From IMG/VR virus record IMGVR_UViG_3300028048_000039, positions 256,001-320,000 of that record: a DNA stretch of 64,000 nucleotides, one strand, 5' to 3'. The position numbers and the translations under genes were made by a program. The DNA comes from a virus (Duplodnaviria; Caudoviricetes). A model generated the notes under the pieces. That model was not told the origin of the DNA. It saw only the letters and a list, made by a program, of their open reading frames with translations, and searched no databases. Positions 2,261 to 25,867 of this stretch are shown piece after piece (the stretch's first letter is position 1; each line of letters begins with the position of its first letter).

Positions 2261-2280
2261 GATATTATCCAAGAATAATC

Positions 2281-2308
2281 TTGACAAATTTTCAAGATTG
2301 GTTATATT
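2281..2308 (+). promoter_or_regulatory. early/middle-type promoter
   Basis: TTGACA-N16-TATATT upstream of the ATG at 2325. Confidence 0.6.
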
Positions 2309-2324
2309 TTATAGAAAAAAGACT

Positions 2325-2441
2325 ATGAAAATGTATTCACCAATATTAGTATTAGAGAATGAAGACACAGGAAAAATAGTTAAGATATTTGGAATTACTA
2401 TTTATCGTAAAATTTACTTGCCTTCAACCAATCACAAATAA
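2325..2441 (+). CDS. small hypothetical protein (38 aa)
   Basis: ATG just downstream of the promoter; start trimmed from the ORF-track call at 2259. Confidence 0.45.
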   Translation: MKMYSPILVLENEDTGKIVKIFGITIYRKIYLPSTNHK

Positions 2442-9255: not shown

Positions 9256-11373
9256 ATGGCTGAAAGAAATCAAACTATATTTCAAAGACTGAATAACATA
9301 TTCAGGTCATCTGGGAGAAGCGGTTCAATTGCAGATAATATGATTACCACACCAGCAAGTGATGTGGCTGAAAGAAATCGTGTCTTGTATACTACAAATG
9401 ACAAGGCGGATTATGAGAAAAAACTTAAGTCACTCCAGCAGCAGAAGTACCTCGCTTATCAATGGAAGAAGGCTGGTGCTGAAAATGCAATGGAGAGTCT
9501 TGCTGGCTATAACGCAGTTAAACTGATGTATAGGGATGTTGACCTTATGGATGGTTGCCCTGAAATTGGTACAGCACTTGACATTATTTCAGAAGAATGT
9601 TGTCCATTGACCAGCGATGGAAATATGCTAACAGTATCATCTCGTTCTCAGAGAGTTAAATCAATTCTCGAAGACTTGTTTGTTAATAGGCTTCATGTAT
9701 ATACAGAATTACCAATGATTGCAAGACATGTGACAAAGTATGGAAATACATTCATGCTTCTTAATCTTGACAAGGACAATGGTGTAATGGGTTGGATGAT
9801 GATGCCAGTTTATGAAGTTGATAGAGAAGAAAATGGTTATAGTGCATCTTACACAACAACAATGACGACAGGAAATGACCTTAAACCAGATGAAACAAGG
9901 TTTATTTGGAGAGGTCACAACGGTGATAACCCATACATGAATTGGCAAGTAGCACACTTCAGATTGTTAGAAGACTCATTCTTCCTTCCTTATGGTGTGT
10001 CAATGCTTCACAAGGCTAGACGTGCTTGGAGAATGTGGTCAATGATGGAAGACGCAATGCTCATTTGGAGACTTGATAAGGCTATCGAGCGTAGGGTGTT
10101 CAAGATATTTGTCGGTGGAATTGATGACGCTGACGTTCCTGCATATGTAAATCAGATTGCAGATAACTTTAAAAGAACACCAATTGTCGACCCAGGAACA
10201 GGCCAGATTGACCTTAGAAAGAACTTCATAGATGTTACTGGTGACTTCTTTATCCCTGTTAGAAGGGAAGACGCACCAACCCCAATTGAGAACCTTGCTT
10301 CACCTAATAGCCAGGTACAGATGGAAGATATTGAGTATATGCAGAATAAGATGCTTACCGCAATGAGAGTTCCAAAGACCTTCCTTAACTTCCAAGAAGC
10401 ACAGGGAAAGGGCCAGAACTTATCATTTATGGATGTTAGGTTCTCAAGAATGATAAATCGTATTCAGCAGTTCCTCCTTATGGAACTTAATAAGATTGCG
10501 ATGATACACTTGTTCCTCCTTGGTCTTAGAGATGAAATTGGAAACTTTACTCTTTCACTTAATAATCCTTCTTCTAACATTAAATCACAGGAACTTGACG
10601 ACCTTTCAAAGAAGCTTCAGGCATTACAGACTGCAGTTACCGACCCAGGTATTGGTATGCCGGTAATGTCACTTCATAAGGCATTGAAAGACATTATGGG
10701 TTATAGCGACTCAGAAATCAAGGATATGCTTAATGAAATTCGTCTTGAAAAGGCAATGGCAGCAGAACTTCAACAAACTGCGGCAATTATTAAAAAGACG
10801 GGAATATTTGATACCGTTGATAGAATATATGGTGATGTAGATGCACTTAATGCACCGCAGCAAGGACAACAGCAAGGACAAGGTGAAGAAGGTTTAGGTG
10901 GTGGAGGCAGCCTTGGTGGAGGCGGTGGCCTTGGAGGTGGCTTAGGTGGCGACCTTGGCGGAGAAGACCTCGGTGGTGAGGGTGACCTTGGTGGTGAGGG
11001 TGACCTTGGTGGTCTTGGTGAACCTGGTGGAGAAACAGGGCCAGATATTGGTGGAGCACCCGGCGAAACTGATATGGGTGGAGCACCAGCGGCAGATATG
11101 GGTGCGCCGTTAAGTGAAGCAAGAAAGAGAGCTAAGTCTTTTACCCAGCAATATCTTGAAATGCTTGCAGAGAATGAGATTAAGAGAGGCGAAGCACCAG
11201 AGAAGATTGAGGAGCCATTTGACTTCGACGAAAAGAACTCTCTCATGGAACATAGCATAAACAAGTTGTTTGACAAGATAGACACTCTTGTTGATGAAGA
11301 CGAAATGGAAAGAGAGAGAATATTAAACGAAGCAAAAGAGATTGAAAAAGTAGGTAAAAAAAGGAAAAAATAA
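9256..11373 (+). CDS. portal protein (gp20-like) with Gly/acidic C-terminal extension
   Basis: PEIGTALDII.EE, PYGVSMLHKARR, MMEDAMLIWR..AIERRVFKI and DFFIPVR are gp20 motifs. Confidence 0.93.
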   Translation: MAERNQTIFQRLNNIFRSSGRSGSIADNMITTPASDVAERNRVLYTTNDKADYEKKLKSLQQQKYLAYQWKKAGAENAMESLAGYNAVKLMYRDVDLMDGCPEIGTALDIISEECCPLTSDGNMLTVSSRSQRVKSILEDLFVNRLHVYTELPMIARHVTKYGNTFMLLNLDKDNGVMGWMMMPVYEVDREENGYSASYTTTMTTGNDLKPDETRFIWRGHNGDNPYMNWQVAHFRLLEDSFFLPYGVSMLHKARRAWRMWSMMEDAMLIWRLDKAIERRVFKIFVGGIDDADVPAYVNQIADNFKRTPIVDPGTGQIDLRKNFIDVTGDFFIPVRREDAPTPIENLASPNSQVQMEDIEYMQNKMLTAMRVPKTFLNFQEAQGKGQNLSFMDVRFSRMINRIQQFLLMELNKIAMIHLFLLGLRDEIGNFTLSLNNPSSNIKSQELDDLSKKLQALQTAVTDPGIGMPVMSLHKALKDIMGYSDSEIKDMLNEIRLEKAMAAELQQTAAIIKKTGIFDTVDRIYGDVDALNAPQQGQQQGQGEEGLGGGGSLGGGGGLGGGLGGDLGGEDLGGEGDLGGEGDLGGLGEPGGETGPDIGGAPGETDMGGAPAADMGAPLSEARKRAKSFTQQYLEMLAENEIKRGEAPEKIEEPFDFDEKNSLMEHSINKLFDKIDTLVDEDEMERERILNEAKEIEKVGKKRKK
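10860..11105 (+). repeat. Gly-rich low-complexity coding repeats (GGEGDL, GGGL, DMGGAP)
   Basis: Tandem ggtggtgagggtgacctt units inside the portal tail. Confidence 0.8.
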
Positions 11374-15520: not shown

Positions 15521-15985
15521 CTATTTCTTTGTTTTATAGATACTGAAGCCTTGTTTATTTATCATTTCCTTAAATTTTGGAAGTAAATTAGATACTATTC
15601 GTGAAATCTCATCATAATATTCCTTAAAACCACTGATGTTCCTTCCAATGTTTAATTTTTTTGGCTGGAAAAATATCTGAAATGAGAAACAGGACCTCTT
15701 TCCTTGTGATATGTGGTCCTCAGCGATTTCAAAATTGCTTACATACTTTGCGTCGCTGGTCAATGCAACGTTCTTGAAAATACCACATATTTCCTTATTA
15801 ATTGAATTCACCAAATCCTTTACACTTGATGAATAATTTTCTCTTGAGAAATTAGGCATTAGATAACAACTGCCTTCGATGTAGACAACACCCATAATCT
15901 TCTTATCTGTTGTCCCAACTTTTAACTTAAATAAATCATCCGAAATGGCCTTTTCGCTATTAATTTTTTTCATTCTTTCATCCAT
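15521..15985 (-). CDS. hypothetical protein
   Basis: 154-aa ORF with its own promoter. Confidence 0.7.
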   Translation of the reverse strand: MDERMKKINSEKAISDDLFKLKVGTTDKKIMGVVYIEGSCYLMPNFSRENYSSSVKDLVNSINKEICGIFKNVALTSDAKYVSNFEIAEDHISQGKRSCFSFQIFFQPKKLNIGRNISGFKEYYDEISRIVSNLLPKFKEMINKQGFSIYKTKK

Positions 15986-15993
15986 TTATTAAC

Positions 15994-16021
15994 AATATAA
16001 GGATTTTTTCAAAAAAGTCAA
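15994..16021 (-). promoter_or_regulatory. early/middle-type promoter
   Basis: TTGACT-N16-TATATT. Confidence 0.6.
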
Positions 16022-16036
16022 GAGGTGGGGGTAAAT

Positions 16037-16140
16037 AAAAAAAGGGACCTTGCGCATAGGTCCCTATTGCGGCTAACCTTGTGGCCTCACAGCGAGACTT
16101 GGGCGAGTGCCGCTATCTAATGTCACAACATTTCCCAATC
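16037..16140 (-). ncRNA. candidate ~100-nt structured non-coding RNA
   Basis: GC-rich island between a minus-strand late motif (16146-16153) and an 8-bp hairpin plus U7 terminator (16037-16065). No ORF; several stems. Confidence 0.6.
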
Positions 16141-16145
16141 TATAT

Positions 16146-16153
16146 ATAAATAG
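16146..16153 (-). promoter_or_regulatory. late promoter motif CTATTTAT driving the ncRNA candidate
   Basis: AACTATTTATATATA on the minus strand with no downstream ORF before the terminator. Confidence 0.6.
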
Positions 16154-16207
16154 TTTGTTAGGCTTATTTCGCTGTAAAATAAGAAAAAAATATTTCCTTA
16201 TTCCAGA

Positions 16208-16215
16208 CTATTTAT
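16208..16215 (+). promoter_or_regulatory. late promoter motif CTATTTAT
   Basis: Recurrent intergenic motif. Confidence 0.7.
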
Positions 16216-16235
16216 AAGTAATAAAAAGATTGAAA

Positions 16236-17705
16236 ATGATTAGGCATTTTTTCCTCGATAAGACAAATAGTATTTTTGAAGGTTCCTTACAGAACGTTGG
16301 GATAAACCCTGTTTTGCACATTGGCTACGGAAAGAGTTTAATGAGGGGACTGTTACATTTCGACACTTGTCAGGTGGGAGAGCTTATTAAAGATAAAACT
16401 TTTGCTAACATTGAAAAGTTAAAGATAACCCTTAAGATGACCAACTGTTTCTCAATTGATGGACTTCCTTATGAAAAGAACTTAATAAATCCATTAACCA
16501 GGAGAGCAGCGTCATTTGACCTTATGCTAACCAAGCTGCCTTGCGACTGGGATGCCGGAAGAGGGTTTGATTTTATCAGTGATTTTTGGGTGAAAAACAA
16601 CCGTTCATACTCACAGGAAGCCTCCAACTGGTATTGTCCAAAAGACGGCCTATTATGGCCTTATGAAGCTGACTTATTAGACCTCAATAACCCCGAACTT
16701 AATTGGGCTGAATTTAAGATAAACAAATTCGGCGCAAAGGGTGGTGTATATCCAATGATTATGTTAAAGGAAGAATATGAAAAATATCTTGACGGAGAAG
16801 ACTCACTTGTAGTGGGAGTACAGCACTTTGACTTCGGTAATGAAAACCTCGAAATTGATGTTACTGATTATGTAATGGGTGCAATAAAGTCTGGCAATAA
16901 TCCAGGACTTCTCCTTTCCTTTACTCCTAGGTTTGAGAATATGAACTTGGATAACGAAGAATATGTTGGTTTCGTTACTGATAAAACTAACACTTTCTTC
17001 CATCCTTATATAGAAGTTGAATATGATGATTTTATTTCAGATGATAGGGAGTCGTTCACAATAGGAAAGAAAAATAAACTTTGCCTTTATGTTTCTGATA
17101 ACGGTGAAATGGTTAACTTAGATGAGGTTCCTACTTGTTCAGTTAATGGAACCGAGGCTGAGGTTAGGCAAATTACAAAGGGCGTTTATGAAGCTACCGT
17201 TTCTTCTGATGGAATGTCTGAGAATGCAATTTATTATGACACTTGGTCTAACATCTTACTTGATGGTGAAGAACAGGATGATATTGAGCTTGAATTTGCA
17301 ACAAATCCTAAGGAGAGGAAGATTAAGATAGGAACTAATGTTGATATTAAGAGAAACTTCGTTCCTTCAATATACGGAATTAATGACGATGAAAAACTTG
17401 GAAGGGGTGAAACGAGGGAAGTTACTGTTGACTTCAGGAAGCAATATGAAACAGAGAAGAGAGAATTAATTGACGGCGCAATGTTCCGTCTCTACGTGAA
17501 AGATGCTGATAGGGACATTGATATCATAAATTATCATCCAATTGAAAAAGGTTTCTTGTATAACTACTTCATGATACATACAGAGGACCTTATTCCAAAT
17601 GAATATTACATTGATATAAGAATAAAGACTGGTCGTGAAATAAAATACTTCAAGAGAGTATTGAAATTTACGGTTGTAAGTAATGTAACTGAGAGATATA
17701 ATTAA
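16236..17705 (+). CDS. probable virion structural protein (beta-sandwich, DNRLRE-like RGLLHFD motif)
   Basis: Late motif upstream; RGLLHFD..., EIDVTDYV...NPGLLL, HPYIEVEY. Confidence 0.55.
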   Translation: MIRHFFLDKTNSIFEGSLQNVGINPVLHIGYGKSLMRGLLHFDTCQVGELIKDKTFANIEKLKITLKMTNCFSIDGLPYEKNLINPLTRRAASFDLMLTKLPCDWDAGRGFDFISDFWVKNNRSYSQEASNWYCPKDGLLWPYEADLLDLNNPELNWAEFKINKFGAKGGVYPMIMLKEEYEKYLDGEDSLVVGVQHFDFGNENLEIDVTDYVMGAIKSGNNPGLLLSFTPRFENMNLDNEEYVGFVTDKTNTFFHPYIEVEYDDFISDDRESFTIGKKNKLCLYVSDNGEMVNLDEVPTCSVNGTEAEVRQITKGVYEATVSSDGMSENAIYYDTWSNILLDGEEQDDIELEFATNPKERKIKIGTNVDIKRNFVPSIYGINDDEKLGRGETREVTVDFRKQYETEKRELIDGAMFRLYVKDADRDIDIINYHPIEKGFLYNYFMIHTEDLIPNEYYIDIRIKTGREIKYFKRVLKFTVVSNVTERYN

Positions 17706-24967: not shown

Positions 24968-25867
24968 TTATTCTTCTAATTCTTTCTTCTTCAACTGGAA
25001 ATAAAGTTCATAATATTTTTTCATATTGTCCCTAATTTCCTTTGTTGTCATCATTGTTTCTTCCCTAAGGAAGTAAAGAATTGTACTCTTTTGAAGTTTA
25101 TTGCTTCCTTCAGGGAGTACCTTGTCCCAATTACGGAATAAGTTTACCAATGCCATACCAACGGTCACCTCTTCCTCGTCCAAGTGATATTCCTCAGCAT
25201 TTTCTATCATCTTTTCAATACCATCTGATACTTTAACGAGCACTTTCTCAGAAATGCCAAAGTGTTCATCTTCTTCTGTTGAGTATTTTGAATTATTATT
25301 CAGTTCCTCAAACATTGTATCATAGGACATATTTCTCTTTCTCTTTTTACTGTATTGGCTACATTTATACATAAGGTAGTTCCTGCATACGGTTCCACAA
25401 TATGAGTAAGCTTTATATCTTTTTTTAACTTTTTTGTAGTTTTTCTCAGTTGTTTCTCCAGTTTCCATGTCAGTGAAGATTACCTTTATATATTCAGGGT
25501 CCGCATCTGTTGCACCGTTTTTCTCTAGGTCGTGAAGCTCAGCGTCAGTTAAAATTGTAAAAGTTTTACCAGCAGCTTCTTCTACTGGAATTTCCTCATA
25601 CTCGTTTATTACTGGTTTATAATGGCTAATCTTCGTTAAAAGATAGGAGATTGTATCATTAAAGTTCTGATAGAACTCTTCATCCGGGACAAATAATTTA
25701 TAGCGTCTTATAATTGATTCTATCATCTTAGTAAGTGCTGGCTGGAGAATGGTGTTGAATATAGCATTTCTATCATCTTCACTACCAGCATTTATGTAAT
25801 TTACGACTGCTTGTTCTTCTTTTTCACGGAAATAATTTTTTTCCTTTGGTTTTCTTCCTCTTTTCAT
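24968..25867 (-). CDS. phage late-transcription sigma factor (gp55-like)
   Basis: KNYF..E, TKMIESIIRRY, TKISHYKP...KAYSYCGTVCRNYL resemble the gp55 region-2 core. Confidence 0.7.
   Translation of the reverse strand: MKRGRKPKEKNYFREKEEQAVVNYINAGSEDDRNAIFNTILQPALTKMIESIIRRYKLFVPDEEFYQNFNDTISYLLTKISHYKPVINEYEEIPVEEAAGKTFTILTDAELHDLEKNGATDADPEYIKVIFTDMETGETTEKNYKKVKKRYKAYSYCGTVCRNYLMYKCSQYSKKRKRNMSYDTMFEELNNNSKYSTEEDEHFGISEKVLVKVSDGIEKMIENAEEYHLDEEEVTVGMALVNLFRNWDKVLPEGSNKLQKSTILYFLREETMMTTKEIRDNMKKYYELYFQLKKKELEE

Follow-up and report, generated by a model that had tools for sequence, protein, structure and literature searches.

Comparison with its relatives identifies the minus strand of positions 16037-16153 as a genuine RNA gene which, as far as can be judged from sequence, exists in single copy, has a fold, a strand, a promoter motif and a terminator of its own, and has persisted over a long time despite being lost repeatedly. 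All positions refer to the window, i.e. the whole stretch of 64,000 nucleotides that was analysed (bases 256001-320000 of a 344.6-kb IMG/VR virus record; 37% GC). The earlier note had proposed here a structured RNA that stands free and is provided with a late-type promoter and a terminator of its own, and the relatives bear this out: of the 40 aligned homologues, 37 keep the promoter motif and all 40 have the terminator hairpin, and the helices show covariation.

The RNA is located in an intergenic region between two divergent genes. The gene on the plus strand (16230-17705) codes for a 491-aa protein and is preceded by a copy of the motif CTATTTAT (16208-16215, plus strand); both are divergent to the RNA and are mentioned only as context. 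The model of the 491-aa protein shows tandem beta-sandwiches, a fold that is not informative, and the protein has approximately 490 homologues with 50-70% identity in metagenome assemblies. The GC content of the island between the genes is 46-48% vs. 23-32% in the flanks. Read on the minus strand, the island consists of CTATTTAT (16153-16146), ATATA, the sequence starting with GAUUGGGAAAUGUUGUGA, a hairpin and seven U residues. The 5' end of the RNA is predicted to be at G16140, and the length of the RNA is about 105 nt.

The claim that the island contains no meaningful open reading frame was found to be correct, its ATGs either read M-L-stop or fall inside the terminator loop. There is no conserved ORF among the homologues, the longest open stretch switches strand and frame, and the lengths of loops and spacers are not multiples of three. 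We also considered the mini-ORF after the 5' module (M-L-stop in this phage) and rejected it: it is not conserved, several members lack the start codon or read on. In line with the statement that the RNA is not a tRNA, ARAGORN detected no tRNA or tmRNA gene in the window. A check against the covariance models of Rfam, suggested in the earlier note, showed that the RNA fits no known family: the whole window had no match to Rfam 15 at the gathering thresholds, and a search of 15950-16250 at E<=10 returned only four chance-level matches (12-18 bits vs. thresholds of 39-56). When the region was compared by BLAST to 50,697 phage records, nothing near was found, and the distant mode gave only chance matches of 30-40 nt; the window is without a close relative among deposited phage genomes. 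Literature searches returned no description of the RNA.

The motif CTATTTAT of the RNA (16146-16153, minus strand) points into the GC-rich non-coding island, as had been claimed. There are 22 copies of it in the window vs. 5.6 expected, a number reached in none of 100 shuffles, and 78 copies in the genome, nearly all of them 10-45 nt 5' of start codons and in the right orientation. Because the copies stand upstream of start codons on the correct strand, we regard CTATTTAT as a real promoter-type signal of the phage. In the homologues that keep it, the motif is at a constant distance from the RNA. It probably defines the late class, judging from the portal gene (T4-like, 9256-11373 in the window) and the other presumably structural genes that it precedes. 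A putative sigma factor (24968-25867) was also considered, Pfam gave no support for it. In the whole window the start codons are preceded by A/U-rich leaders without a Shine-Dalgarno sequence. The motif analysis supports the coexistence in this phage of a phage-specific promoter class (CTATTTAT) with host-type TTGAC/TATATT promoters.

As to the host, a pattern scan of GTDB gave one real match, in a contig binned in an uncultured Bacteroidales MAG (L130), and three matches that were at chance level and were discarded. This single binned contig is a weak hint at a Bacteroidales host. We note that, despite this contig, the early-type promoters have the canonical form TTGAC-N17-TATATT, unlike the TTTG/TAnnTTTG type of Bacteroidetes.

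The 3' end of the unit is formed by an intrinsic terminator (16037-16065, minus strand) with an 8-bp hairpin, a 7-nt loop and U7. The hairpin is present as claimed, AGGGACCU-AUGCGCA-AGGUCCCU at 16065-16043 followed by T7, and a terminator scan found exactly this one site (8 pairs, loop of 7) in the kilobase. Its stem covaries in all seven modelled pairs, and the median dG of the hairpin among the 40 homologues is -13.2 kcal/mol. The next 8 nt contain at least five U in 24 of the 40; the U-tract is weak in about 16 of the 40, thus in these read-through may be substantial. The loop (16051-16057) carries the palindrome UGCGCA. Roughly half of the homologues have a 6-nt self-complementary loop, which varies yet stays palindromic (UGCGCA, UGUACA, GUAUAC, GUGCAC), although the palindromes are individually only weakly significant (p 0.05-0.2 per loop). 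Because the loop varies and remains self-complementary, kissing dimers or oligomers could form, and the palindrome could be a kissing-loop dimerisation site or a palindrome at the DNA level.

Early scans of viral contigs found no relatives with a single-protein query and no match to one exact pattern; the two matches to a second exact pattern were in unrelated coding sequence and were rejected. Three contigs fetched via the 491-aa protein kept the same gap of about 250 nt, in which a core (...AGCGGC-ACU-GCCCAAGUCUCG...GAGGCCACAAGGUUA-GCCGC...) and the next hairpin were conserved far above the flanks. The core is more conserved than the flanks even in relatives whose 491-aa marker protein is only 50-68% identical. 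A protein alignment (A2) supplied 120 further loci from JGI metagenomes and IMG/VR, and RNA homologues were searched for with nhmmer, then with a covariance model (R1). The model gave one full-length match per locus (E 1e-9 to 1e-18), without exception on the strand that does not code for the 491-aa protein. More distant phages have weaker yet clearly homologous copies, and the total is about 45 distinct homologues in metagenomic jumbo-phage contigs. Collecting homologues and testing them for covariation had been recommended in the earlier note; the outcome is that the RNA is conserved, with compensatory changes, in about 45 relatives.

The core of the RNA is a rod (16069-16113, minus strand) with three covarying helices: P1 of 5 bp (GCGGC/GCCGC, 16113-16109 / 16073-16069), P1b (GCC/GGU, 16104-16102 / 16078-16076, with C opposite A in the fourth position) and P2 of 6 bp (GUCUCG/UGAGGC, 16098-16093 / 16089-16084). 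The rod had been described before with P1 and P2, which are right, the third, short helix P1b had been missed. The covariation statistics were obtained from a model-based alignment (A6) of 40 sequences with 21 pairs, and were compared to 500 shuffles. In this alignment 91.7% of the cells are paired vs. 72.9% in the shuffles, the number of double-change cells is 157 vs. 43.7 expected, 18 of the 21 pairs have changed on both sides, and no shuffle reached any of the observed pairing or covariation measures. When, as a control, the partners were slid by 1-3 columns, pairing fell to 33-52%. RNAalifold, run on an independent MAFFT alignment, detected compensatory changes in 12 of 13 pairs. P1 has fully changed in far members (GCGGC to GAAAAACUA). 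P1b, nearly invariant within A6, is compensated in distant members (AGU/ACU in L057 and L112, GCUU/AAGU in L027, GCCG/CGGU in L009). The A-U, U·G and C-G pairs at the base of P2 are almost invariant, and the rod has two conserved asymmetric internal loops, ACU(C)/UA and (C)AA/CACA(A). A linker of 3-7 nt separates it from the terminator. Two G·U pairs are near-invariant (34/40 and 35/40 sequences); on the other strand they would be C·A, therefore the functional strand is the minus strand, and the earlier remark that the G-U pairs work on this strand only proved to be well founded.

The pseudoknot suggested as an alternative fold (GAUUGGG/CCCAAGUC) did not stand up to the same comparison. Its pairing is 82.7% vs. 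82.8% in shuffles, it does not covary, the partner positions vary without compensation, and the 5' arm is absent in 14/40. That it can be formed in many members is due only to the conservation of both sides. Folding of the single sequence is unremarkable (z = -1.7; opposite strand z = -2.2), and the fold supported by the relatives, at -29.6 kcal/mol, is not the same as the computed minimum of -34.1 kcal/mol. The evidence for the structure comes from the relatives, not from thermodynamics.

Between the predicted 5' end and the rod there is a 5' module (16114-16140, minus strand) consisting of GAUUGGGAAAUGUUG and a variable spacer, which is present in most homologues and is probably single-stranded or a weak hairpin. 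The segment AGAUUGGGAAAUAUGUUG of the module is conserved in the alignments, and no covariation was found between module and rod. The module is missing in 9-14 of the 40 homologues, including a subfamily (L105, L120, L033, L035 and others) that keeps the rod and in which the RNA would be about 75 nt long; in another subfamily the module is replaced by AAAUGGAAAAAC. A different arrangement was observed 5' of the 148-aa homologue in L125 and L126, where CTATTTAT and a module-like AGAGUAGGAAUUU are kept and a single GC hairpin stands in place of the rod; the RNA may here have been reduced or replaced.

In about 43 of 45 loci the RNA is followed, 40-65 nt downstream and in the same orientation, by a homologue of a conserved gene for a protein of about 148 aa. 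In the window this gene is a 154-aa ORF (15521-15985, minus strand); the homologues all begin with MKKINSE, which makes the ATG at 15973, four codons past the first ATG, the probable true start. A sigma-70-type promoter, TTGACT-N16-TATATT (15994-16021, minus strand), precedes the gene outside the RNA and is given as context; it matches 10 of 12 positions of the sigma-70 consensus. The sequence TTGACTT-N16/17-TATATT is conserved in relatives with and without the RNA. Its distance from the terminator is 3-26 nt in the relatives, and in L023 it overlaps the hairpin. In many relatives the 148-aa gene is preceded by this promoter with no space left for the RNA, and two relatives rated 100% complete keep the gene with no match to R1 anywhere at E<=0.1. 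The persistence of the promoter in RNA-less relatives, these two complete genomes included, indicates that the RNA is an accessory, self-contained unit and not an obligatory leader. We found no difference between the 5' UTRs of the 148-aa gene in relatives with and without the RNA.

Neither the insertion of genes that separate the RNA from the 491-aa gene (L016, G005) nor, in one subfamily, the presence of a co-oriented 243-aa gene just upstream disrupts the linkage to the 148-aa gene, which is seen in no fewer than four different settings on the upstream side. In L060 a different gene comes after the promoter-RNA-terminator unit, and in L015 the terminator is not followed by TTGACTT up to the end of the contig. 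That the 148-aa gene has its own promoter and that the RNA stands before another gene in L060 also fits the notion of a free-standing unit; judged by sequence, the RNA has a promoter and a terminator of its own and is independent of the flanking genes, as is expected of an independent sRNA gene. The AF2 model of the 148-aa protein (pLDDT 86) has an alpha/beta fold. In a fold search the best PDB hit had a Z of 7.7, which is background, the atlas neighbours were unnamed viral clusters, and Pfam and PHROGs gave no match. The homologues are mildly basic with a median pI of 8.9.

Each of the six genomes that were searched whole contains exactly one copy of the RNA. The clade consists of uncultured jumbo phages of 200-390 kb. 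In a tree of the 491-aa marker, made by a quick IQ-TREE search, the RNA occurs from the deepest branch (L112/L057) to the clade of the window, with lineages that lack it scattered in between. At least 7-8 label changes are required on this tree, implying that the RNA has an old origin and was lost several times. An underpowered co-occurrence screen, made for ORFs of this genome that are found in four genomes with the RNA and absent from two complete genomes without it, yielded only one paralogous family that tracks the RNA, phrog_13450. This family has at least ten small proteins of about 130-150 aa with the pattern MCL...CYKV...GFHSF...C.IP.G (genome 144968-173511 and 223933-224364; L240-L242). 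The link between phrog_13450 and the RNA may be only phylogenetic.

What could be the role of such an RNA? The reading that we prefer, and to which we give about even chances, is that it is a late, discrete, trans-acting RNA that binds protein. According to this model the minus strand would be transcribed from the phage's own CTATTTAT promoter, and transcription would stop at the intrinsic terminator, just before the sigma-70-type promoter of the 148-aa gene. The coaxial helices P1, P1b and P2 would form a rod displaying the two asymmetric internal loops and the two G·U pairs, and a protein partner would recognise the RNA through the conserved internal loops. The RNA would then be active in trans during late infection, serving as a scaffold that binds protein specifically or as a sponge. 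As a side effect, the terminator could insulate the early-promoted 148-aa gene from late transcription. Late timing, discrete termination, the protein partner and action in trans are all features that we infer. We favour trans action by protein binding because the invariant internal loops sit on a rod that covaries freely, because the rod does not overlap the terminator, because the neighbouring gene is served by a promoter of its own whether the RNA is present or not, and because the unit can move. It must be noted that one observation speaks against this reading, since it fits a role in cis as well: the RNA has stayed close to the 148-aa gene, and in the same orientation, while several rearrangements took place upstream. 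By a rough estimate there is much less space for insertions between terminator and promoter than upstream of the RNA promoter, therefore the restriction of the rearrangements to the upstream side is not significant alone, and by the same rough estimate the linkage could be historical.

The linkage speaks for a cis-acting leader or attenuator with a leaky terminator, the main rival reading, which we consider possible though rather doubtful. In such a leader most late CTATTTAT transcripts would stop at the hairpin, and read-through would be tuned by a factor that binds to the rod, be it a small ligand, the 148-aa protein or some other protein of the phage, providing the early-promoted 148-aa gene with a second, regulated, late mode of expression. 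Besides the position of the RNA, 5' of the same gene family in the same orientation and at short distance in nearly all loci and in several upstream contexts, this is consistent with the occurrence of the gene without the RNA and almost never of the RNA without the gene, with the imperfect U-tracts of the terminator in many members, and with the invariant internal loops on a covarying rod, which resemble a ligand- or protein-binding aptamer. However, a riboswitch or attenuator is expected to control a gene that lacks a downstream promoter of its own, whereas here a complete, conserved promoter lies between terminator and gene and serves the gene alone in RNA-less relatives, whose 5' UTRs are the same. 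Inspection by eye revealed no antiterminator pairing that overlaps the terminator, rod and terminator being separated by the linker, and the alternative pairing offered by the pseudoknot shows no covariation. The arrangements in L060 (another gene after the unit) and in L015 (no TTGACTT between the terminator and the contig end) do not fit a leader either.

Alternatively, the 5' module AGAUUGGGAAAUAUGUUG could be the seed of a base-pairing sRNA directed against a host or phage mRNA, with the rod and the terminator as a stabilising or chaperone-binding body. The module is conserved in sequence and gives no sign of being paired, and 5' seed, structured body and terminator, in this order, is the usual layout of trans-acting sRNAs in enterobacteria. 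Nevertheless we think this unlikely: a whole subfamily lacks the module and keeps the rod, the most conserved nucleotides are within the internal loops of the rod, and a search of the phage's own 345-kb genome for sites complementary to the conserved segments, with up to 2 mismatches allowed, gave none that was convincing. It is very improbable that the RNA is a partner or antidote of the 148-aa protein, either in a type III toxin-antitoxin-like system or in a dedicated RNP, with the terminator setting the ratio of RNA to protein. The order of promoter, RNA, terminator and protein gene is that of type III systems, the adjacency to the gene is near-constant, and the protein is mildly basic; but no tandem RNA repeats occur in 15800-16400, where the only tandem repeat is an A-rich run of 19 nt outside the RNA, a separate promoter serves the protein gene, and the protein is retained without detectable RNA in the two 100%-complete genomes and at many other loci. 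The persistence of the protein without the RNA and the lack of repeats make an antitoxin-like partnership unlikely, and the antitoxin-mimic function proposed in the earlier note is thus disfavoured. The other functions suggested there, a defence decoy and a packaged or assembly RNA, are hypothetical. Finally, we give almost no credence to the idea that the island is not an RNA gene, and that it represents either an element acting at the level of DNA (operator, palindrome, origin) or the decayed start of a gene. The terminator region is indeed an inverted repeat in DNA beside a promoter, many loops contain 6-nt palindromes, and the 5' module resembles real late genes in having an ATG downstream of the promoter. 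But the helices covary instead of conserving their sequence, the G·U pairs would be C·A mismatches in DNA or on the other strand, and promoter motif and terminator bracket the element in 37-40 of 40 members.

A more speculative extension, decidedly unlikely in our opinion, would make the RNA the representative of a new late class that depends on self-association for its function, in which the loop palindromes lead to kissing dimers or oligomers that serve as a structural or assembly cofactor or a packaged component in the morphogenesis of the jumbo phage, in analogy to the pRNA of phi29 but without kinship to it; or else the rod would be an aptamer for a new ligand or protein that sets late read-through.

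Some other places in the genome are candidates for small RNAs. A copy of CTATTTAT at 2398-2405 (plus strand) is followed by approximately 220 nt without a listed ORF until the gene at 2627; the span 2398-2626 is a candidate for an unusually long late leader, or for a small gene or RNA that has escaped annotation. A sigma-70-like promoter that contains an inverted repeat, TCTTGACAAATTTTCAAGATTGGTTATATTT, has three identical copies in the genome (window 2276-2330, plus strand; genome 12458, minus strand; genome 172895, plus strand), two of which precede GC-rich, hairpin-forming non-coding sequence. Similar units of promoter plus GC-rich sequence are at genome positions 86109 and 20205 (both plus strand). 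These units are candidates for further small RNAs.

To our knowledge, the non-coding RNAs of large uncultured phages are almost unexplored. An orphan RNA family that is well bounded by a promoter and a terminator, has a fold backed by covariation, occurs in single copy and is present in a deep clade could seed an Rfam family. It also offers a concrete handle on what RNA may do in the late phase of jumbo phages, whether as a protein sponge, as an assembly cofactor or as a regulated leader.

It is instructive to compare the RNA with known phage and bacterial systems. In the leader of the lambda PR' transcript ('6S RNA') a late-class promoter is followed after about 100-200 nt by an intrinsic terminator, which gives a short abundant transcript upstream of genes. 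The unit described here has the same order of late-class promoter and intrinsic terminator, with genes further downstream. The lambda transcript is, however, a substrate of Q antitermination and not a conserved covarying fold, whereas in the present unit selection acts on the RNA fold as such, a further promoter lies beyond the terminator, and we identified no Q-like system. The C4 RNA of P1/P7 and the CI RNA of P4 are structured RNAs of about 77-80 nt, which base-pair with sites in the downstream transcript and function in the immunity of temperate phages. They resemble our RNA in being small structured phage RNAs, directly upstream of and co-oriented with genes, on which C4 and CI act; in our case, however, no complementarity to the downstream transcript was found, and neither C4 nor CI is part of a late-promoter unit. 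The pRNA of phi29 (120-174 nt, early) forms a ring on the portal by means of two different complementary loops. Both are structured phage RNAs, ours among presumably structural genes, with helices that carry conserved internal loops; the pRNA loops pair between molecules, and about half of the terminator loops in our family have 6-nt palindromes. Our RNA shares no sequence or Rfam similarity with pRNA, and its association with a portal is hypothetical. Type III toxin-antitoxin loci likewise have a promoter, a non-coding RNA, a terminator and a protein gene in one orientation, but ToxI is a tandem array of 36-nt repeats, which is processed by its toxin, while the RNA described here has no repeats, and the protein next to it has an independent promoter and persists without the RNA. 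Non-coding transcripts have reportedly been mapped in Pseudomonas phages by transcript-end sequencing; those sRNAs belong to other phages, have no sequence relation to ours and are defined by their expression, whereas the present family is defined by comparative structure. A small structured RNA encoded by a phage is of a known kind; what is new is this RNA family, together with its fold and the late-promoter setting in which it is found in jumbo phages.
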